Part shown: positions 4,085 to 14,291 of the stretch, in pieces
How the letters are laid out: each line of letters starts with the position of its first letter
How positions within the stretch are numbered: position 1 is the stretch's first letter
DNA from: an uncultured archaeon
Lineage (GTDB): Archaea; Aenigmatarchaeota; Aenigmatarchaeia; GW2011-AR5
DNA length: 64,000 bases
NCBI GenBank assembly: GCA_964373695.1
Contig: CAYJVT010000003.1
Location: 437-64,436, forward strand
Direction: 5' to 3'
Program-made: the position numbers and the translations under genes
The notes under the pieces: model-generated
The model's input: only the letters and a program-made list of their open reading frames with translations
Told to the model about the DNA's origin: nothing
Database searches by the model: none

Positions 4085-5695
4085 TTAAACCGAACCGCGG
4101 CCATAAGGTATCTTCTGGGCAATAGCATCAAGCGGCATGCCTTCTATCTCCGCGGACTTCTCCGGAAAGACGGCCTTCATCTTCTCCTTTATACTCTTGG
4201 CCAGGTCCCTCGATTTGATGTCGCCTGCATAGATGGGGACGCACTTGAGGCCCAGATTGCGGAAAGACCTGAAAGGCATTATTTCGAAAGCGCCTTTCAC
4301 GTATCCAGCCCCGAGCATGAGCTCCATGCGGCGAACGTAATTCTTCTCCCCTTCTATCCCGAAAGTCCCGGTGCCGACCATGTTCTTCAGCTGGCCAGGC
4401 CTGACCCAGTAAACGTCTATGGTGCCCAGCGACATCGCCCAGGCCTTCGAATAGCATGCCGCAAACTGCATCGCCTCGTCAAGCGCGTTCTTCGTCGCGC
4501 TTTTCTTCCCGCATTTGACGACTGCGAAAGCAGCCCCGTGTATCTCGGCGTGTATGACTATATCGCTGTCATCCAGCCGCTTCTTTATTATTTCATTGTT
4601 GGTTTTCGCGTCCCTGCCCGCTATGACAAGGAATCCGTCGCCGGTGAAGAACCACCTGAACTTGTGGTACCACTCCTTCCGGATATCTTTCTTCACGACC
4701 TTCTCCCTGCTCATTTCGACCGCGGCGCGCCCTATCTTCTTCCCCATCTTCTTGGCCTCCTCGAAGTACTTCTCGGCGTTTTTCTGCAGGCTAAGGGACC
4801 TTTCAAGCTTTATTCTCATACCGTCGAGCTCTATCTCCGAGCCCTTCATTTTCTTGAACAGCTCTGAGATTTCGGAGAACTTCTCATATATCTTCTCGGC
4901 CTTCGCCCTGGCCTCACGCTCGCGCTCTTCCATCCTTTTCACGGCCGACTTCTGCTTGTCGAGGATGGTGGGATGGCTTTCATCGGAAACATCCCTTATC
5001 GAGGCTTCAAGGGCCCTGCCGAACATGTCGGATTCCGTCTCCTTCAGCGCCGAAAGAATACCTACAAAAAGGCTTCTTTTGTCGGCTTCTGAGAGGCTCT
5101 CTGATGCTCTCGTCTTCTCTATGCCGCACGATTCCAGGATGTTTTCGGCGTGGAATCCCAGGCCATTCTTGACAAGAAACGACACTATCTTCTCGCCGGT
5201 TTTCATTCCTTTTCCGAGGTCTTCGTAAGACGTTATGTCCACGCTTTCAGGAAATTTGTAGACGCTTCCGGGCATCAGGCTCCTGTCCTTCCATTCCCTC
5301 TGGGACAGCGCAGTTATTATCCTCATCTCGGGGCCGCACAGGACGACATTCCCCTTATGGAACATCTCTATAACCAGCGTCCTGGAAGAAAATCCTATTA
5401 CTATTATGCGGTCGAACCTATGCTGCGACAAGGAGGATATCTTCCTCCCCTTCAGGTGTTTCCTGAGAATTTGGGAAAATCCGGTCGCCTGGCCGCTGAA
5501 GCCTTCGGACGCAAAAGCGACGTCCGGCCGTATCTCAATGCCGTTCCTTGACGATACCTTGAGAAAGAGCCTGCGGCCGCCGTGAAAAACATTGTCTATC
5601 CTGCACCCCACGAATTTCTGCAGCTCACTCGCCAGCCGCATTATCTCCAGGCTTGTTATCCTCAATGGATTCCTCGAACCCTTTCTTGATCTCAT
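4085..5695 (-). CDS. NFACT/FbpA-family protein (archaeal Rqc2/NEMF homolog) with DUF814
   Basis: NFACT N-terminus (LEIMRLASELQKFVGCRIDNVFH), coiled-coil middle and DUF814 block (WFFTGDGFLVIAGRDAKTNNEII...DIVIHAEIHGAAFAVV). The annotated ATG overlaps the scpB 3-prime end by about 70 nt, so the true start may be an internal TTG or ATG. Confidence 0.7.
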   Translation of the reverse strand: MRSRKGSRNPLRITSLEIMRLASELQKFVGCRIDNVFHGGRRLFLKVSSRNGIEIRPDVAFASEGFSGQATGFSQILRKHLKGRKISSLSQHRFDRIIVIGFSSRTLVIEMFHKGNVVLCGPEMRIITALSQREWKDRSLMPGSVYKFPESVDITSYEDLGKGMKTGEKIVSFLVKNGLGFHAENILESCGIEKTRASESLSEADKRSLFVGILSALKETESDMFGRALEASIRDVSDESHPTILDKQKSAVKRMEEREREARAKAEKIYEKFSEISELFKKMKGSEIELDGMRIKLERSLSLQKNAEKYFEEAKKMGKKIGRAAVEMSREKVVKKDIRKEWYHKFRWFFTGDGFLVIAGRDAKTNNEIIKKRLDDSDIVIHAEIHGAAFAVVKCGKKSATKNALDEAMQFAACYSKAWAMSLGTIDVYWVRPGQLKNMVGTGTFGIEGEKNYVRRMELMLGAGYVKGAFEIMPFRSFRNLGLKCVPIYAGDIKSRDLAKSIKEKMKAVFPEKSAEIEGMPLDAIAQKIPYGRGSV

Positions 5696-6152
5696 GCTTC
5701 TTCGCCCCGAAATACTCCTCGAAATGCGTCGTCGTCACCAGGACTTTCGTCCTTGACTTCTTCTCGGTTTTTATGAGGCCGCGCTGCTCGAGCTCCTTCA
5801 CATAGTCGTATGTCCGGTTTCCAACGACTTTCACTATGTCGGCCTGGTTTATCGGCTCGTGATAAGCTATTATTGACAGCACCCTTAAAAGGCCTCTCGA
5901 AAGATCCGAGTGCGGCGTGAGGTTCGAGACGTTCTCGACGAACTGGTCCTTCACGACAAGCTTGTACCCGCCGATGCTCGACAGCGTTATGCCGGATTCG
6001 GGGCTTGCATACTTTTCCTCCAGCTTTTTCAGCATCTTCTCTATGGAATCCTTCCTGAGCTTCATTATCTTTTGTATAGATTCCAGGGAAATCGGCTCCG
6101 ATGTCGTAAACAGGATGGACTCCAGCATACCAAGGGATTTTTCCTGCGTCAT
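5625..6152 (-). CDS. scpB: Segregation and condensation protein B
   Basis: Winged-helix ScpB pattern (LESILFTTSEPISLESIQKIM...). The start ATG at 6152 overlaps the scpA stop (ATGA). Confidence 0.75.
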   Translation of the reverse strand: MTQEKSLGMLESILFTTSEPISLESIQKIMKLRKDSIEKMLKKLEEKYASPESGITLSSIGGYKLVVKDQFVENVSNLTPHSDLSRGLLRVLSIIAYHEPINQADIVKVVGNRTYDYVKELEQRGLIKTEKKSRTKVLVTTTHFEEYFGAKKHEIKKGFEESIEDNKPGDNAAGE

Positions 6153-6811
6153 TGGACTTCCTCCATGAACCTTATGTTTATGTCGGCGAACATGCTCTCC
6201 TGCTCGCACGATATCCTGCCGCGCTGGCACAGGTACAGCAGCGGGAGGAATGTCGTCACTATCTCCCTCCTCTTCCAGGAAGGCACCAGCTGGGAGAAGA
6301 GGACGCTTTTCCGAGCCTTTATGTCCGACAGTATCTTGCCTATCCTTTCCTCAATGTCCTCCTCCTCGACTATGAGGTTCTCCACAGCCCGCCTCATCCT
6401 GAACTGCTTCGTCTCCTTCTTCTCCCTGAAGTCGAACGCCCGGTTGAGCGCAGTTACAAGCTCAGTGAGCGTGACCTTCCTTGTCGGCTTCCTGGTGACC
6501 GGAGAAGGCAGTATGGGTACGTCTATGTTCAGAGGCTCCACGTCCTTCTTCTGCATCCCCTTTTTCTCTTCCTCCTCAAATATGAGCTCGCACTTCATCC
6601 TCAGGAGGATGGCGGATATCAGCACGAACCTTGCCGGGACCTTGAAGTCGAACGACCTGAGGCGCTCCATGTGATGCATGAACGAGTCGGCAAGCCTTAT
6701 TATGTCTATGTCAAGAGGATTCATTCCCTCCTCCATCACTATGTTGGATATGATTTCCTGCCAGTCCGAGCCCAGGACTATCATCTGTATCATGGATTCT
6801 TCTTCCATCAT
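6149..6811 (-). CDS. scpA: Segregation and condensation protein A (kleisin)
   Basis: ScpA-like N-terminal block (LDIDIIRLADSFMHHMERL...FVLISAILLRMKCELI). Lies directly between smc and scpB. Confidence 0.75.
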   Translation of the reverse strand: MMEEESMIQMIVLGSDWQEIISNIVMEEGMNPLDIDIIRLADSFMHHMERLRSFDFKVPARFVLISAILLRMKCELIFEEEEKKGMQKKDVEPLNIDVPILPSPVTRKPTRKVTLTELVTALNRAFDFREKKETKQFRMRRAVENLIVEEEDIEERIGKILSDIKARKSVLFSQLVPSWKRREIVTTFLPLLYLCQRGRISCEQESMFADINIRFMEEVQ

Positions 6812-6812
6812 G

Positions 6813-9800
6813 CTAACCCGCCCTCGTCATGTCTATGCCGAACACCTTTGATACGCCGCCCTCTATGGAGACGCCGAACACCTTGTCGGCTTCCTGTATC
6901 GTGATGTCGTTGTGACTTATGACTATGAACTGCACCTGAGCAGAGTATTTCTTTATGAGTCCGGCAATTTTCTTCGTGTTTGCCTTGTCCAGGGCGGCGT
7001 CTATCTCGTCCAGGACATAGAAGGGCGCGGAACTGTACTGCATTATAGCGAAAAGGAACGCAAGGGATGTGAGAGTCTTCTCGCCGCCGCTCATCGCATC
7101 CAGATTCACGACCCTTTTCCCCATTGGCGACGCCTCTATGACAAGGCCTGTGTCTATGTTGTTCTCCTCCTCCAGCCTGAGTATGCCGATGCCGCCTGTC
7201 AGGTCCTCGTATATCTTGGCGAAGTTCTCCCTTATCTTCACCATGACCTCCATGAACTTGTCGTACCGCCTCTTCTCGACCTCGTGAACTATCCTTAGTA
7301 TGGCGTCCTTCTCCTCAAGGAGCTTCTCCAGCTTTCTCTTCATCTCGTCGAACTCGACGCCTATCGTACCGTATTCTTCTATGGCCCTCATGTTTATCGG
7401 CCCCAGACGGTTTATCTCTATGACGCAGAAGCGGAGCTTTTCCTGGAGCTCGTCCACTGACTTGTCGTAAAATTCCTGGACGTCCCTGTACTCACCGAAC
7501 TCGATGCGAAAGTTGTCAAGCGAGGCTTCAAGCCTGGCCTTCTCTATCCTGAGCTTGCTCACCCTGCTCTGCTGCACTAGGCGCTGCTCATACAATTCCT
7601 TCCTTTTCTTCCTCATGCCGTCTATTTCCTTCTCCTCAGCGCTTTTTTCCTCCTGGAGCTTTGTCACCTCTTTCGTCTCCTCCTGTTCCTGTCCCTTCAG
7701 CTCTTCGAGCTTTGATTCAAGCCCGGAGACTTCGGCTTCCAGGGCGCCCTTTTCTTCTTCAGCCTTCGCGACATGGCCCGAGTACTGGTCGCCGGCCTTC
7801 TTCCTGTAGAACCCGCCTATTATGGCGCCGGACGCCTCTATAAGGTCGCCATCCAAGGTCGCCGCCCTGAGCCTGCCAAGCCGGCGCGCCTTGTCAAGGC
7901 TGTCCGTTATGACGGTGCTTCCAAGGACGTAATCCACAGCCGGAAGACAATCCTTGTTGAATTTCACCAGGTCCGACGCCCATCCGATATAGTCGCCCCT
8001 TACGTCCTTCCTCTTTCCACCCCTTATCTTGTTGAGCGGAAGGAAGCGCGCCCTGCCTATCCTCTTCTCCTTGAGCATCCTGACGCATTCCGAGGCTACA
8101 TCGTCGTCATCGACCACTATGTCGTCGGCATGCCTTCCCACGGCGACCTGTATCGCTATCTCGTACCTTTTGGGCACCGACAGAAGGGACATCAGCGTGC
8201 CCCTGATACCCGGATGCCCGAGCTTCAGAACTTCCTTGACAGCCGGGTTCTGCCTGCCTGCGGAAAGCTCCCTGAGCCTCTCCAACTCCCTGTCTATGAG
8301 GTCTATGCGGTCGTTTTTCCTTATTATCTCGGTCTGCATCCCGTCGATTTTCCTCTGTATGTCGTAGTTTCTGGACTTCTTTATCAGCTCGTCGCTCTTC
8401 CTGAACACGTTCTTCTCCTTCTTCTCGAGCTCCTTCTCCACAGACTCGAATTCTGATTCCAGCACGCCGAAGCTTTCCTCGCCGCTTTTTATTTCCGTAT
8501 CAATGAGCGAGTATTTCTCCTCTGCATCGGACAGTTTTTTTCTGACGAGAGATGCCTTTGATTTCTTCAGCTCGTCACTAAGCATGATATACTTCTCCGC
8601 CACTTCCTTCTCCTGTTTCAGCCTCTCAACCAGGCGCTGCTTCTCGGCGACGACTATCATGTTCTCCTTCACCCTCGATTCAACCTTCTCCAGCTCTATG
8701 GAGGCTTTCTGCTTCTTCTCGTCGAATTCGCTTATGCCCGATATCTCGTCAAGGATGGAGCGCCTTTCCTGGGCGGACATCTCTATTATCTTGGTGACAT
8801 CACCCTGCATGATTATGTTGTAGCCCTCGGTGAAGAGGTTGGCGTATGAGAGTATATCGAGGACTTTCGCCCTGGTCGTGTTGCGGCCGTTTATCTTGTA
8901 CACCGAGATGCCGCTCCTCGTTATCTTCCTCGAGACTTTCATCTCCTTCTCGCCTGGTATCTTGTCGTCGGAATTGTCCAGATACAGGGAGACTTCGCAG
9001 AAGTCCGCCGGTTTCCTGTCCCTGGCCCCGTTGAAGAGAAGGTTCTGCAGTTTCTCTGCGCGGATGCTGCGCGCCGATGTCGTGCCCAGGACGAATGTGA
9101 TGGCATCTATGACATTGCTGTTGTGGACGAAGAAACCGTTTGCAATATAATTATGTGTCTCATCTACAGTCAGATCATAAACCCACTCAGAAGGCTTGGT
9201 TTCTTTTATTTCTATTATCTCATCCCATAAGATGTCAGAATCTGCTATCAAAAGCAGCTGATTCATGAGTGCAGAAGCTCTGGGTGTTATAGACCCGTAT
9301 TTTTTGATTACTTCAACTATTTCCCTAATTCCGTTTCTGCTGCAGGCGCATCTATCTTCATAATATGCCGCAAGCTTTGGGCATTCAGACCTTGTTTTTT
9401 TGATGCTTATTTTACATTCTCTTACAAGCGATTTTATAATTGCGTTTATGTCCGGAATCGTATCAATGTTAGAATTTCTGACAAATTCAAGCCTTTTTAT
9501 TTTGTCTGCAGTTTCTTTTTTCCTGCCTTTTAGCTCTATATTTTCGATAAGGATTTTTAGAGATTCCCCATATACGTAGATAGAATGGTATTTTCTCTTT
9601 ATTTTTCGCTTTGTATTTGATGCATATTTTATTTTTTCCTTTATGACTGACAATATTCCAAGCCGAAGAAGCAGTTGCTGAATTCCTTCTGCAAGTTCTT
9701 TGCTTGCGGTAGAATATTCAAAATATGTCTGCCCTGATCCGAGGTTAAAGTAGCCGTCGCCTTCAAACAATGCCGAAAGGAAATTCTTTATAATATCACC

Positions 9801-10862
9801 ATCACATCTAAAAATTAATTCAGGAACGACTTTTTCTGACGAATTTGAGCCTATTTTTAAATCAAACGACTCTTCTAGCACTATTTGGAGTGGCTTTGAG
9901 AACAAAATAACGTCTTTTGTATCCCCTTTATACGAAAATACATTTGCTTCAACTCCAAGGTGATTTTTGCATATTTCGACGAAGTCCGATATAAGCTCCT
10001 CATCATCGTTTACAAACCATAACTGATTTGAATCCGTAGACCTGCCTTCTGATATCATGTAGCCAAGAAAACGGGCCATTTCGCTTGAAATACTCGGGAT
10101 TTTTATGGCTTTATTTTGGTTTTTTGATTTGACATTGTCTATATCTAACTTCAGTCTGTATTTATCTGAAAGCTTTTTCAAATAATCATGGCGAATAGAT
10201 CGACCATCGAAAAGCCCCTTGATTGCGGCATGTGGAATGCCGGATTCTTTGGCGAATTCTCTGTAGGTTAAATGTCTTTTCTTTATTTCCACCTTTATCG
10301 CGGTTTTTAATTCATCTGAATACGGAACATAAAGATTTTCAAAATTCCTTTGCGAAGATGAAAAAACAGATTTTTCAAATATTGGTATGATTCTTGGAAC
10401 AGCAATCCTCTTCCCGATTTTTATCTCTTCTGCCTTGAGAGAAAAGATGCCATTTTCATTAATGCCAAAGAAAGGATGATAAGGAGTAGCTATTACCTCT
10501 CTTCCGGAACGGGTTTTTATATGCAGCAGCTTATCCGGGGATTTTCTTTTTATAAATGCCTTTATCGGATGTGATGATATTTTAAGATTTTTGTCAAGCG
10601 TGAGTATTTTAGTTTCATCGCCTTCTCCGATAAAACCGTCTTCTATCTCCGAAACTTTTTTTGACTTTTCTAGTCTGCTTTCTACCAGTTTCCCTATCTT
10701 CACTATTCCGCCGTCTGACAGGGTAACAAGACTGTCATAATGGAGGCATTTTCCGGAGCCGTTCGGCCCTGCTATGACATTGAAACCGTCGGGGAAGGGT
10801 ATCATGACCTTTCCAGCGAACGACTTGAATCCCTGCATCGTTATCCTGTCTAATCTCACCAT
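6813..10862 (-). CDS. smc: Chromosome segregation ATPase SMC, interrupted by a 543-aa intein in the Walker A motif
   Basis: N-terminal FNVIAGPNGSGK then Cys plus intein, resuming SNVIDAITFVLG. Long Lys/Glu-rich coiled coils, hinge (GIRGTLMSLLSV...), C-terminal signature LSGGEKTLTSLAFLFAI and Walker B FYVLDEIDAALD. The extein is about 806 aa, normal SMC size. Confidence 0.9.
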   Translation of the reverse strand: MVRLDRITMQGFKSFAGKVMIPFPDGFNVIAGPNGSGKCLHYDSLVTLSDGGIVKIGKLVESRLEKSKKVSEIEDGFIGEGDETKILTLDKNLKISSHPIKAFIKRKSPDKLLHIKTRSGREVIATPYHPFFGINENGIFSLKAEEIKIGKRIAVPRIIPIFEKSVFSSSQRNFENLYVPYSDELKTAIKVEIKKRHLTYREFAKESGIPHAAIKGLFDGRSIRHDYLKKLSDKYRLKLDIDNVKSKNQNKAIKIPSISSEMARFLGYMISEGRSTDSNQLWFVNDDEELISDFVEICKNHLGVEANVFSYKGDTKDVILFSKPLQIVLEESFDLKIGSNSSEKVVPELIFRCDGDIIKNFLSALFEGDGYFNLGSGQTYFEYSTASKELAEGIQQLLLRLGILSVIKEKIKYASNTKRKIKRKYHSIYVYGESLKILIENIELKGRKKETADKIKRLEFVRNSNIDTIPDINAIIKSLVRECKISIKKTRSECPKLAAYYEDRCACSRNGIREIVEVIKKYGSITPRASALMNQLLLIADSDILWDEIIEIKETKPSEWVYDLTVDETHNYIANGFFVHNSNVIDAITFVLGTTSARSIRAEKLQNLLFNGARDRKPADFCEVSLYLDNSDDKIPGEKEMKVSRKITRSGISVYKINGRNTTRAKVLDILSYANLFTEGYNIIMQGDVTKIIEMSAQERRSILDEISGISEFDEKKQKASIELEKVESRVKENMIVVAEKQRLVERLKQEKEVAEKYIMLSDELKKSKASLVRKKLSDAEEKYSLIDTEIKSGEESFGVLESEFESVEKELEKKEKNVFRKSDELIKKSRNYDIQRKIDGMQTEIIRKNDRIDLIDRELERLRELSAGRQNPAVKEVLKLGHPGIRGTLMSLLSVPKRYEIAIQVAVGRHADDIVVDDDDVASECVRMLKEKRIGRARFLPLNKIRGGKRKDVRGDYIGWASDLVKFNKDCLPAVDYVLGSTVITDSLDKARRLGRLRAATLDGDLIEASGAIIGGFYRKKAGDQYSGHVAKAEEEKGALEAEVSGLESKLEELKGQEQEETKEVTKLQEEKSAEEKEIDGMRKKRKELYEQRLVQQSRVSKLRIEKARLEASLDNFRIEFGEYRDVQEFYDKSVDELQEKLRFCVIEINRLGPINMRAIEEYGTIGVEFDEMKRKLEKLLEEKDAILRIVHEVEKRRYDKFMEVMVKIRENFAKIYEDLTGGIGILRLEEENNIDTGLVIEASPMGKRVVNLDAMSGGEKTLTSLAFLFAIMQYSSAPFYVLDEIDAALDKANTKKIAGLIKKYSAQVQFIVISHNDITIQEADKVFGVSIEGGVSKVFGIDMTRAG
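9120..10748 (-). mobile_element. Intein with LAGLIDADG-type homing endonuclease domain inside the SMC P-loop
   Basis: Begins CLHYDSLVTLSDGG (block A) and has a TxxH block (IATPYHPFF). Two LAGLIDADG-like motifs (FLGYMISEGR, LSALFEGDGYF). Ends VYDLTVDETHNYIANGFFVHN followed by extein Ser. The intein DNA is markedly more AT-rich than the flanking extein. Confidence 0.85.
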
Positions 10863-10866
10863 AAAA

Positions 10867-11013
10867 TCACTTTTTCTTTTTCTCCCTCAGCTTCTCAAAG
10901 ACTGCATTGTTTATGAATGCTGCAACAGAAGGGTACTGGTATCTGTTCTCTTCCTTCCTGAGAAAGTTCTTTATCTCCTCGAGAAGCTTTTCATCAATTC
11001 TTACTACCGGCAT
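10867..11013 (-). CDS. Ribbon-helix-helix (CopG/MetJ-like) small DNA-binding protein, 48 aa; absent from ORF track
   Basis: Manual translation gives MPVVRIDEKLLEEIKNFLRKEENRYQYPSVAAFINNAVFEKLREKKKK. N-terminal beta-strand plus two helices typical of RHH. It ends 5 nt before the smc start on the same strand. Confidence 0.5.
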   Translation of the reverse strand: MPVVRIDEKLLEEIKNFLRKEENRYQYPSVAAFINNAVFEKLREKKKK

Positions 11014-11084: not shown

Positions 11085-12386
11085 CTAGTAGATGTATCCC
11101 CAGGTCTGGAGCTTGTCCGAATCGTAGTACCATCTGAGGCCTATGTCCGTCCTGTAGAACATGTTGGGTATCATGATGTTATTCACCCGGTGATACGCCT
11201 GCTTCCTGGCGGCGTCCATGGTGCTGCCGGAGCCCGTGACAACGAGAGCGTATCCCGAATTGCCAGCCAGACGCCAGTCATCGTCCACGAACTTCACATC
11301 GCCCAGATGGATGCCGCCCATGTTGGGTTTCTTGAATAGTATGGCCGCGTCTTCAGAATAGCGCTTGAATGCGATAGGGTCATTGAAAGGAAACGGCGGT
11401 ACGGCAATGACGACGCCTAGCTGGAATCCTCTCTTCGTCTTCAAGTCGTATTTCTGCCTGCTTGCAATTGCATACAGAAATTCCCCCCACGGGCTGATAA
11501 CGCCTTCCATTACGATGCTTATATGTGGATAACCGAAACGCGACGTGAATTCGAGAGGATATATACCCTTTGAATTCACTATGCAGTTTATGTCGATATA
11601 ACCCACATATCCGCTCTCGGCAAGCTTTTCCTTCATTTTCAAAAGAGTTTGGTTGAATATCACATTAGGCTGCGAATAATACATGGATGTCCCCATCTCG
11701 CCAGTGCTGGGTCCTATCTCCCCAGGGAACATCCTTTTGTGCTCAAAATTTATGTTTATGGGAGTTATGAAATCCATGCCGTTGAAAAACGCTCCTATTG
11801 CAACCTCGACTCCTGAGGCGTATTTCTGGAGCTGGAAAATCTTTATCTTGTTGGACCAGTTCTTTTTGTAGTGCTCAAGGACCTGGATGACGTCCCTGCC
11901 GTCGTCTTCCTGTCCTATAAAGAGGAGCTCCTTCTCGTTCTGCGCAAGACCGCTGGGTTTCAATACATACCTTCCTGGACTATCCTTTATGAATTTTATA
12001 GCTTCCTCGAAATCGGTAAAATTCCAGTTTGGAAGCGTCATTATCCCCACCTTCTTCATCTCTTCCTGCCCGAATTCCCTGCTAAGCTCCAGTTTGTCGG
12101 TGTATGACGAACCGCCTATGACAAGCTTCCCCTCCTTCCTTAGCCTGTCAGCAATTTCCCCGAATTCAGTATCGTCAAATACTATCACGTCCGCCCAATC
12201 CGCATGCTCTTTCCACGAGTCCACCTTGTCAACAAAGCCATCGCATACGTCCCTCTGGTCCTTCTTAATTATGCAATACTTCACTTCATGGCCTTCTTTC
12301 TTTATCTGCCATGCAAGGTCGTTTATGAGAGCTTCATTTGAAACAAAAAGAAATTTCTTCCCACCGTTCTTCCCGTTTTTTTCCAT
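11085..12386 (-). CDS. PurD-like ATP-grasp enzyme (phosphoribosylamine--glycine ligase family), orphan
   Basis: ATP-grasp core with GEIGPSTGEMGTS, resembling the PurD GDxGPNTGGMG motif. No other purine-synthesis genes are nearby. The likely start is the internal Met (MEKNGKNGGKKFLFVSNE). Confidence 0.5.
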   Translation of the reverse strand: MEKNGKNGGKKFLFVSNEALINDLAWQIKKEGHEVKYCIIKKDQRDVCDGFVDKVDSWKEHADWADVIVFDDTEFGEIADRLRKEGKLVIGGSSYTDKLELSREFGQEEMKKVGIMTLPNWNFTDFEEAIKFIKDSPGRYVLKPSGLAQNEKELLFIGQEDDGRDVIQVLEHYKKNWSNKIKIFQLQKYASGVEVAIGAFFNGMDFITPININFEHKRMFPGEIGPSTGEMGTSMYYSQPNVIFNQTLLKMKEKLAESGYVGYIDINCIVNSKGIYPLEFTSRFGYPHISIVMEGVISPWGEFLYAIASRQKYDLKTKRGFQLGVVIAVPPFPFNDPIAFKRYSEDAAILFKKPNMGGIHLGDVKFVDDDWRLAGNSGYALVVTGSGSTMDAARKQAYHRVNNIMIPNMFYRTDIGLRWYYDSDKLQTWGYIY

Positions 12387-12522
12387 GCTACAAGTAATGT
12401 ACACGCTTGAATATAAATTAATTAAAATTTCCGGAAAAATTTTTGGCTCACGATGACATCGGTTTAACGATATTTTCCGCAAAAATCATCCAAATACACT
12501 AATTACAGAACTCCATAATGAT

Positions 12523-13365
12523 ATGTATAAGAAATTTAGCCTGCTTATCATATCAATGATATATGACGAGTCGACCAGAACGGCCGTAGATTTCTACGGC
12601 GGCAACGTAATTCTTTATCCCGTGAATTCCAAGATATACGAGGGAAAAACCGATTTCCAGGACGTCTATATACTCGACACCAAGTCCTTCGGAAAGATGC
12701 TGGTTCTTGACGGCGATATGCAGTCATGCCAGTCGGACGAGCACCTTTACCACGAGGCGCTTGTGCAGCCGGCAATGCACCTGCATCCAGGAGCCAAGAG
12801 CGTCCTGGTTCTCGGAGGCGGCGAGGGCGCGACCCTGAGGGAGGCTCTCAAGCACGGTGTAGACAGGGTTGTGATGGTCGACATAGACGAGAGGCTGGTG
12901 GAGATATGCAAGCAGCACCTTCCTGAATGGCATGCCGGATGCTTCTCGGACAAACGGGCCGAACTGCTCTATACCGATGCATTCAGGTATGTCGAGGATT
13001 GCAAGGAGAAGTTCGACGTGATAATAATAGACGTCACTGACCCTTCAAGCAGCATAGCCAAGCATGTCTTTTCCGAGAAGTTCTACGATTCATTGAAAGA
13101 AATAATGGAAAAAGGCGCCATATGCGCTTTCCAGGCCGGAGACTTCATGAAGCCTGATATTTACAATAAAATCCTGGAACAGATGAGGAAATGTTTCGGC
13201 TTTGCGTATCCGTACAAGAATTTCATCCCGTCTTTTTATACCGAGTGGGGATTCATTTTGGCTTCAACGGAGAAAACCGATACGGATAATCTAAGAGCGT
13301 TTCCAGTTAAAAACAGGTTCTATACAGGTGTTTCTCACAGGTCGATGTTTTCAGTCGATAAATAG
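12523..13365 (+). CDS. speE: Spermidine synthase / polyamine aminopropyltransferase
   Basis: VLVLGGGEGATLREALKH and VVMVDIDERLVEICKQHLPEW motifs of the SpeE family. Confidence 0.8.
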   Translation: MYKKFSLLIISMIYDESTRTAVDFYGGNVILYPVNSKIYEGKTDFQDVYILDTKSFGKMLVLDGDMQSCQSDEHLYHEALVQPAMHLHPGAKSVLVLGGGEGATLREALKHGVDRVVMVDIDERLVEICKQHLPEWHAGCFSDKRAELLYTDAFRYVEDCKEKFDVIIIDVTDPSSSIAKHVFSEKFYDSLKEIMEKGAICAFQAGDFMKPDIYNKILEQMRKCFGFAYPYKNFIPSFYTEWGFILASTEKTDTDNLRAFPVKNRFYTGVSHRSMFSVDK

Positions 13366-13793: not shown

Positions 13794-14291
13794 TTAAAAT
13801 ACTTTTGCCTTAATTCCATTAAGCACGTAATCCGGAATTATCCCCATTTTTATGTATTTTCTTTTCACTGATGCAGGCAATAGCCTGAATTCTTTCACTA
13901 TTTTTCTGCAGCCCCTGCTCCCGCAAATACATTTCATCTCCCAACTGTCCTTGTACATGGTTGTCGAGTAATCGAACGTTATTTCCTCGCCTTTAGATAT
14001 ATCCCTCAGAGATACGAGAGCGGCGCGTTTTCCATCTATCTTCACCCACGAATTCGGATTGCATGAATGGTTTACGTAATTGTCGGCGGTTCTGGAAGGA
14101 GCGATATACAGGTCGTCCCCTACCTGGAGATAATGATTGTTGTCAGACGCGAATCCAGGAGGATTGCTGCTTCCGCGGAAAATCTTTCCATGAAAACGGA
14201 CTAAAGTTTCCCCTTTTTTGAAGTTTCTGCCAGAAAAAACACCCTTCCCCCTATCAGTCCGTTTTACTATAAAATCCTTCATTGATTTCAA
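13794..14291 (-). CDS. SET-domain protein lysine methyltransferase
   Basis: Hallmark SET motifs NHSCNPN and EEITFDY, plus a post-SET Cys cluster (CICGSRGCR). Confidence 0.8.
   Translation of the reverse strand: MKSMKDFIVKRTDRGKGVFSGRNFKKGETLVRFHGKIFRGSSNPPGFASDNNHYLQVGDDLYIAPSRTADNYVNHSCNPNSWVKIDGKRAALVSLRDISKGEEITFDYSTTMYKDSWEMKCICGSRGCRKIVKEFRLLPASVKRKYIKMGIIPDYVLNGIKAKVF

Follow-up and report, generated by a model that had tools for sequence, protein, structure and literature searches.

The window, by which we mean the whole 64-kb stretch of archaeal DNA analyzed here, carries on its minus strand a single open reading frame (ORF) of 1349 amino acids (aa), uninterrupted over 4 kb, that encodes an SMC protein split within its Walker A motif. 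The precursor reads MVRLDRITMQGFKSF...GPNGSGK-CLHYDSLVTL...NGFFVHN-SNVIDAITFVLG. We are highly confident that the interrupting segment is a class-1 intein with a LAGLIDADG homing endonuclease, placed between Lys38 and Ser39 of Walker A, which is predicted to be spliced out of the protein and to spread by homing. A preliminary description of this DNA had proposed a 543-aa intein with a LAGLIDADG endonuclease in the SMC Walker A motif at 9120..10748, and both the ORF and the profile matches bear this out at exactly these coordinates (Table 1).

The interrupted gene encodes the SMC subunit of condensin in a Candidatus Aenigmarchaeota (DPANN) archaeon. In Pfam, the precursor matched SMC_N (PF02463, E=1.2e-56, in two stretches) and SMC_hinge (PF06470, E=2.4e-31), and the Walker A, signature and Walker B motifs could be located in the N- and C-terminal halves of an ABC-type head, with the hinge between them. 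We regard it as a genuine SMC because the genes for its partners, scpA and scpB, lie directly downstream. The spliced 806-aa query matched thousands of SMC proteins, and the best matches all came from metagenome-assembled genomes of Candidatus Aenigmarchaeota/Aenigmatarchaeota. The archaeal SMC equivalog model TIGR02169 (NCBIfam) matched the precursor with E=4.6e-199 in four stretches, but the unspliced sequence, scored at 663.8 bits, missed the cutoff of 729.4, a deficit consistent with short coiled-coil arms (the spliced protein has 806 aa, the model 1165 positions) and with the presence of the intein. Among the best 120 matches, nearly all intein-free relatives are 767–826 aa long, and a short-armed SMC of about 800 aa is therefore the norm of the Aenigmarchaeota lineage and not an artefact. 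Measured against the archaeal model, the coiled-coil arms of Aenigmarchaeota SMC are about half the usual length. The preliminary description had called the spliced protein normal-sized, which holds within this lineage but not by the standard of TIGR02169.

Intein-free alleles place the insertion point exactly, at GPNGSGK/S (the slash marks the insertion; residues are numbered as in the spliced protein). As had been proposed, removal of aa 39–581 restores GPNGSGKSN and leaves 806 aa, and this product aligns without gaps to the intein-free, 806-aa P0002/P0138 (94% aa identity), which NCBI annotates as chromosome segregation protein SMC. The nucleotide sequences agree as well: with the intein removed, the window gene has 2421 nucleotides (nt), as has its counterpart at locus L001, and the two align gap-free with 89.9% identity. 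P0098 (93% aa identity) is likewise intein-free and collinear, and P0003 and P0004 (77–78%) are also without the insert; across the site the empty alleles read GPNGSGKSN[VI]IDA. The comparison with intein-free orthologs that the preliminary description had recommended thus upholds the intein, as residues 39–581 are absent from these collinear alleles. The four nearest extein relatives (77–94% identity) all lack the type-A intein, as we call the window's family below, and those relatives that do bear inteins are just 55–63% identical to the window in their exteins.

The insert is a class-1 intein with a monomeric, two-motif LAGLIDADG endonuclease. Scanned alone against Pfam, it matched Intein_splicing (PF14890, E=1.1e-29), and LAGLIDADG_3 (PF14528, E=8.9e-20) was matched as well. 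In NCBIfam, the model intein_Nterm (TIGR01445) covered aa 1–94 of the insert, starting from model position 1 (E=1.5e-17), and intein_Cterm (TIGR01443) covered precursor aa 560–582, its last position being the +1 Ser (E=6.7e-11). A check against such profiles had been suggested, and the matches lie flush with both junctions. Intein residue 1 is Cys39 of the precursor, immediately after the N-extein; block B contains the TxxH motif as T88-P-Y-H91; and the C terminus ends in FFVH542-N543, followed by Ser at +1. The two LAGLIDADG motifs are FLGYMISEG (intein aa 227–235) and LSALFEGDG (aa 324–332), each with its acidic residue followed by Gly. Blocks A, B and G, Cys1, the His-Asn pair, Ser+1 and both LAGLIDADG motifs were thus correctly recognized in the preliminary description, and block F is present too. 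Between the first Hint lobe and the endonuclease lies a Cro/C1 (Xre)-type helix-turn-helix (HTH) domain, which by itself matched HTH_3 (PF01381) with 24.7 bits (cutoff 23, E=2.4e-5) and gave a weaker match within the whole protein; from this match, it may be an accessory DNA-binding module. The segment after the endonuclease core (intein aa 409–502) received no Pfam assignment, its only match being a sub-threshold one to winged HTH_46 (E=0.066), and it contains a stretch, CPKLAAYYEDRCxCSR, that occupies conserved alignment columns of the family.

Table 1. Features of the interrupted smc gene and the genes directly downstream (positions in the window).
Feature	Position	Strand	Basis and remarks
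smc precursor ORF	6813..10862	-	1349 aa + stop; N-extein, intein, C-extein; ORF list, SMC_N, SMC_hinge, TIGR02169
N-extein, aa 1–38	10749..10862	-	ends in first part of Walker A, GPNGSGK (10749..10769); collinear with intein-free P0002, P0003, P0098
Intein, 543 aa, Cys1...His542-Asn543	9120..10748	-	precursor aa 39–581; PF14890, TIGR01445, TIGR01443, AF2 model, Foldseek
Hint N-terminal lobe (intein aa 1 to ~119)	10392..10748	-	TIGR01445; beta-strand-rich in model
Block A CLHYDSLVTLSDG	10710..10748	-	
Block B GREVIATPYHPFF with T88, H91	10467..10505	-	
Cro/C1 (Xre)-type HTH domain between Hint lobe and endonuclease	10158..10316	-	PF01381 HTH_3; four helices, intein aa 145–197, in model
LAGLIDADG endonuclease core (intein about aa 215–405)	9534..10106	-	PF14528 E=8.9e-20; alpha-beta-beta-alpha-beta-beta-alpha in model
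LAGLIDADG motif 1 MARFLGYMISEGRS	10038..10079	-	acidic residue E234
LAGLIDADG motif 2 IKNFLSALFEGDGYF	9747..9791	-	acidic residue D331
All-helical domain after endonuclease core (intein aa 409–502)	9243..9524	-	helices in model
Hint C-terminal lobe (intein aa 506–543)	9120..9233	-	TIGR01443
Block F EWVYDLTVDETHNYIANG	9135..9188	-	
Block G FFVHN	9120..9134	-	
C-extein, aa 582–1349	6816..9119	-	Ser+1 codon AGC at 9117..9119 completes Walker A as GKS
Hinge in C-extein	7878..8213	-	
Signature motif SGGEK in C-extein	7074..7094	-	
Walker B in C-extein	6987..7025	-	
scpA (kleisin)	6149..6811	-	directly downstream of smc; PF02616 E=2.6e-14
scpB	5625..6230	-	PF04079 E=1.5e-35

An AlphaFold (AF2) model of the intein, built on a 24-sequence alignment, has a predicted local distance difference test (pLDDT) score of 91.4 and a predicted TM-score (pTM) of 0.89. 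Within it, aa 222–403 show the pseudo-dimeric alpha-beta-beta-alpha-beta-beta-alpha order of secondary structure. The top Foldseek matches in the PDB are all intein endonucleases (7qss, 2cw7, 7qst, 1dq3, 1vde): the best is the TliVMA intein 7qss (E=4.6e-27), and PI-TkoII (2cw7), the PhoVMA intein, PI-PfuI (1dq3) and PI-SceI are also found. Mini-inteins (root-mean-square deviation 1.6–2.5 A over about 120 columns) and free LAGLIDADG enzymes rank lower, and the endonuclease part matches I-DmoI, I-Tsp061I and the endonuclease domains of PI-TkoII and PI-PfuI. The TliVMA intein, PI-TkoII, PI-PfuI and yeast PI-SceI (1vde) resemble the window's intein in that a Hint domain is interrupted by a two-motif LAGLIDADG endonuclease with extra DNA-binding modules (E=4.6e-27 to 6e-18, query-normalized TM-scores 0.55–0.67), but they are only 13–20% identical to it and reside in V-ATPase, DNA polymerase and ribonucleotide reductase.

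Conservation of the catalytic residues was read in an alignment of 88 family members. T88, H91, D525, H542 and N543 are invariant (88/88), and residue 1 is Cys in all 81 type-A and bacterial members and Ser in type B. The position of E234 holds E or D in 87 of the 88, and that of D331 holds D in every one. Since the catalytic residues are intact and there is no sign of decay, the window's intein is likely competent for both splicing and DNA cleavage, as far as can be predicted from its sequence. That the element is inactive, dead for splicing or as an endonuclease, and the smc gene a pseudogene, is extremely unlikely: every splicing and endonuclease residue is in place, the ORF is open throughout its length, and no condensin locus other than smc-scpA-scpB was seen in the window.

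Inteins have settled repeatedly in the SMC P-loop. In Aenigmarchaeota, the same Lys/Ser bond of SMC has three kinds of occupant. Type A, the window's own family with Cys1, includes P0047, P0074, P0079, P0104, P0117 and L011, which are 54–63% identical to the window intein; these relatives were reached by searching with the extein, and a protein search with the intein alone returned no relative above 47% identity. Type B (GK/S[CT]RGDT...GIFVHN/SN) is carried by P0040, P0045, P0046, P0075, P0085, P0100 and P0005 (L009 1501–5517). It is found in the same phylum and at the same insertion point as the window's intein and has the same LAGLIDADG architecture, but is only 32–36% identical to it and has Ser as residue 1 and Asp instead of Glu in LAGLIDADG motif 1; it is an independent occupation of the site. 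The third occupant is a mini-intein of 156 aa, in P0073.

With the type-A alignment we also scanned prokaryotic genomes, one for each species. Relatives are encoded by 204 species genomes, bacterial and archaeal, and the best 80 of these were examined. They comprise one Aenigmatarchaeota genome and bacteria, in which Omnitrophota dominate and Planctomycetes, Acidobacteriota, Chloroflexota, Rokubacteria, the candidate phyla radiation and Actinomycetes are also represented. All 75 loci with both junctions readable show GPNG[CSTA]GK/C...HN/SN...W[VAC]LGE, that is, a bacterial SMC occupied at the identical site (bacterial loci L012–L090). These inteins are like the window's in insertion point (GPNG[CS]GK/C...HN/SN), length (545–568 aa) and domain order, with 35–47% identity over the whole length, but they sit in bacterial SMCs of canonical type. 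Several of the bacterial carriers and the Aenigmatarchaeota copy L011 share their origin in the same 0.1-um groundwater filtrates. For P0121 and P0127, the NCBI name is merely 'LAGLIDADG family homing endonuclease, partial'. Of 60 bootstraps of a neighbor-joining tree, 57 recover the archaeal type-A inteins as a clade, 45 do so for the bacterial ones, and 57 unite the two without type B. By this tree, the window intein has its nearer kin among the bacterial SMC inteins and not in type B of its own phylum. Such a grouping, which excludes type B, implies at least one old cross-domain transfer of the SMC intein lineage. In IMG/VR, scanned with the intein alignment, all relatives were just 21–26% identical, which gives no support for a viral carrier. 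An ABC-transporter ATPase (PF00005) of 784 aa, P0130, contains a related LAGLIDADG intein that is 28% identical (GPSGSGK/C...HN/ST); it occupies the equivalent Walker A bond, but the host family is different and the intein distant.

The intein differs sharply from its host gene in G+C content (GC) and in GC at third codon positions (GC3). Its GC is 36.4% and its GC3 33.9%, against 53.1% and 73.4% in the extein and a GC of 50.2% for the window, so the greater AT-richness noted in the preliminary description is confirmed quantitatively; no other stretch of 1629 nt in the window is as low in GC, about 4 standard deviations under the mean. The description had seen in this a fit with horizontal acquisition. 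The window's GC3 gap of 0.40 is indeed the second largest of 76 family loci, exceeded only by that of L006, another high-GC Aenigmarchaeota carrier (0.38 vs 0.80). However, in 75 of these 76 loci the intein has a lower GC3 than the extein (median gap 0.14), and intein GC3 follows host GC3 (r=0.87). The AT bias is therefore partly a family trait, resident copies being partly ameliorated, and composition alone is weaker evidence of recent transfer than was assumed. Continuing flow from low-GC donors, weaker codon selection and mutation bias are candidate causes of the family-wide low GC3. In the Aenigmarchaeota loci examined, the inteins have 32–37% GC whatever the GC of the host, and several lie in contigs of 36–43% GC, which fits an intein pool circulating from low-GC members.

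The extein sequence around the insertion point is unusually divergent. Compared with the closest empty allele, L001 (= L093), the window gene has 29 mismatches in the 111 nt of extein nt 76–186, against 215 in the 2310 nt elsewhere (Fisher p=6e-7). Nearly all of the mismatches are synonymous, and the patch spans the insertion point at extein nt 114/115. For Ser+1 the window uses AGC, and each of the eight other intein-bearing alleles examined, which are of type A, of type B and in one case bacterial, has AGC or AGT; of the four empty allele types, two (L001/L093 and L004) have TCA instead. The empty allele L091 (P0098) has AGC, and its flanks are close to the window's, with 20 of 20 nt identical downstream and a few third-position differences upstream. 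Empty flanks of the L091 type read …GGCTCGGGAAAG/AGCAATGTCATAGATGCC…, and those of the L001 type …GGTTCTGGGAAA/TCAAATATCATAGACGCA…. From its flanks, the L091 allele looks like an uncut, plausible target site. When the three alleles were compared with each other, divergence in the patch was raised in all pairs (0.17–0.26, vs 0.06–0.12 in adjacent regions), and L001/L093 was the most aberrant there (gene nt 76–186; L001 297–407), with a GC3 of about 0.4 against 0.8–0.9 nearby. The patch was first read as a co-conversion tract in the window allele, and this reading was dropped once the third allele, L091, had shown L001/L093 to be the most aberrant; the L001/L093 patch looks as if it had been imported or had diverged at the endonuclease target. 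We conclude from these alignments that recombination in these lineages has centered on the insertion site, as a homing cycle of gain and loss predicts. Empty closest alleles and a patch of synonymous divergence fit homing.

The sharp switch in GC at the junctions might also be taken for a metagenome assembly chimera, in which assembly had fused the low-GC intein of some co-occurring population into this high-GC smc at the conserved P-loop sequence. The sequence apparently comes from a metagenome assembly, its relatives are all proteins of metagenome-assembled genomes, and in its flanks the window matches a distant intein-bearing allele at 17 of 18 nt and at 6 of 6 nt. Yet the reading frame runs through unbroken, both junctions are exact, the independent contig L006 shows the same contrast, and the shared flanks are too short for assembler k-mers. 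The altered flank sequence moreover reaches about 40–70 nt into the high-GC extein, and we find the chimera scarcely credible.

We think that the window copy was probably acquired fairly recently from a lower-GC relative. Several points weigh against our account of the intein and its arrival. No donor was found, the nearest sampled intein being just 63% identical. With a low GC3 throughout the family, composition alone is no proof of recent arrival. The patch is most aberrant in the empty L001/L093, and the event that made it may belong to that lineage. Finally, identities among type-A inteins (54–63%) and among their exteins (55–63%) are about equal, so that long vertical co-inheritance also fits. 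The intein might then be an old resident, inherited vertically and precisely lost from the empty relatives, its low GC intrinsic to the family; the way in which intein GC3 lies below and tracks that of the host suits such a history, and an aberrant patch in L001/L093 would be expected if the intein had been lost there by conversion from an intein-free allele. Against long residence stands the GC3 gap, almost three times the family median, which time should have eroded. Several independent precise losses would be needed to account for the empty state of all four nearest extein relatives, and in its immediate flanks the window agrees with distant alleles that bear inteins. On balance we hold an old resident to be possible but rather unlikely.

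Established intein chemistry, applied to the residues found, suggests how the proposed spliced and homing intein would work. The 1349-aa precursor would be translated with a split P-loop, making productive ATP binding impossible. Cys1 would undergo an N-S acyl shift, Ser+1 would attack the thioester, and Asn543, aided by His542, would cyclize and release the intein; an O-N shift would then join GPNGSGK to SN, giving the 806-aa SMC, partner of ScpA and ScpB. The free intein would act as an endonuclease with E234 and D331 as its metal-binding acids, and the Cro/C1-type HTH and the C-terminal helical domain would probably add DNA contacts. It would cut the P-loop coding sequence of intein-free smc alleles, and recombinational repair would copy the intein with a short extein flank into the cut allele.

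With Walker A split, the precursor must be inactive, and a domesticated conditional switch might be imagined in which splicing gates the SMC ATPase in response to a cue such as temperature or, by way of Cys1, redox state; roles of this kind have been proposed for other inteins in P-loops. The same site is taken by two archaeal intein families and a bacterial one, with relatives in 204 species genomes, and selective retention of P-loop inteins is argued for by Novikova et al., 2016 (PMC4760082). Endonuclease residues kept throughout the family, together with sporadic presence among close relatives, are instead the pattern of selfish homing, and the endonuclease's need for invariant DNA explains the conserved target sites. 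We consider a switch quite improbable. A broader picture, which we put forward as speculative and on the whole unlikely, would make the SMC P-loop a long-standing cross-domain intein hotspot: one lineage targeting the nearly invariant coding sequence of GPNGxGK/SN would have moved between ultra-small groundwater archaea (Aenigmarchaeota/DPANN) and bacteria such as Omnitrophota and the candidate phyla radiation, at least two unrelated lineages would compete for the site in Aenigmarchaeota, and splicing would possibly gate condensin.

The preliminary description had asked whether an SMC insertion site was already catalogued. In Novikova et al., 2016 (Mol Biol Evol 33:783, PMC4760082), the archaeal SMC ATPase, which is also the host here, is named as containing inteins, and P-loops are reported to be where the inteins of replication and repair ATPases concentrate; for SMC, the main text gives neither the insertion site nor a sequence or taxon. 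The MCM-a, DnaB-b and RFC-a P-loop inteins described there interrupt GxxxxGK[ST], either at the Lys-Ser/Thr bond or beside it; they occupy other host families and are distantly related. Our literature search found no paper on the SMC site, the Aenigmarchaeota copies, type B or the bacterial sister family, and an NCBIfam scan of the precursor returned no model for an intein-containing SMC. The intein itself is well formed and of an ordinary kind; the system is already known in outline, with SMC as a host and the P-loop as a class of site, and what is new is the breadth of the family and the presence of two lineages at one site. The SMC Walker A motif hosts a large, unnamed and under-annotated intein family, and an annotation model for intein-containing SMC would mend the mis-annotation of an essential chromosome-maintenance gene. 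Intein-bearing and empty alleles at 93–94% protein identity also make a natural system for the homing cycle, offering a candidate cleavable target (L091 type), a candidate divergent target (L001 type, with the TCA Ser codon) and a second intein family at the site.

The smc gene has purD upstream; scpA and scpB follow it directly on its own strand, with an NFACT gene after them, and this gene order is common to the relatives. A 48-aa ORF (MPVVRIDEKLLEEIKNFLRKEENRYQYPSVAAFINNAVFEKLREKKKK) at 10867..11013 (minus strand), which has no Pfam match, ends 5 nt ahead of the smc start codon; ORFs of 50–61 aa occupy the same position in several relatives (L001, L004, L005, L009, L091–L093). No second intein was found in the window, as a family hidden Markov model run against all six-frame ORFs matched only the one in smc, and Pfam scans of the ten other largest ORFs revealed no intein. 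Scans of the whole window for tRNAs and for Rfam families (at the gathering score) found no gene or family. Its large ORFs are ordinary archaeal housekeeping genes: the primase small subunit, ArgRS, ABCE1/RLI, ATP-dependent DNA ligase, GlmS and an Obg-like GTPase. The 165-aa ORF at 13794..14291 (minus strand) contains an NHSCNPN motif and, by analogy, is probably an archaeal SET-domain methyltransferase; in L092 and L093, a gene for a SET-domain protein (PF00856) adjoins purD, between purD and smc. A sharp dip in GC (34%) at 12250..12550 coincides with a gap of about 40 nt and the 5' ends of the divergent ORFs 11085..12482 (minus) and 12523..13365 (plus), and it is probably a shared promoter region.

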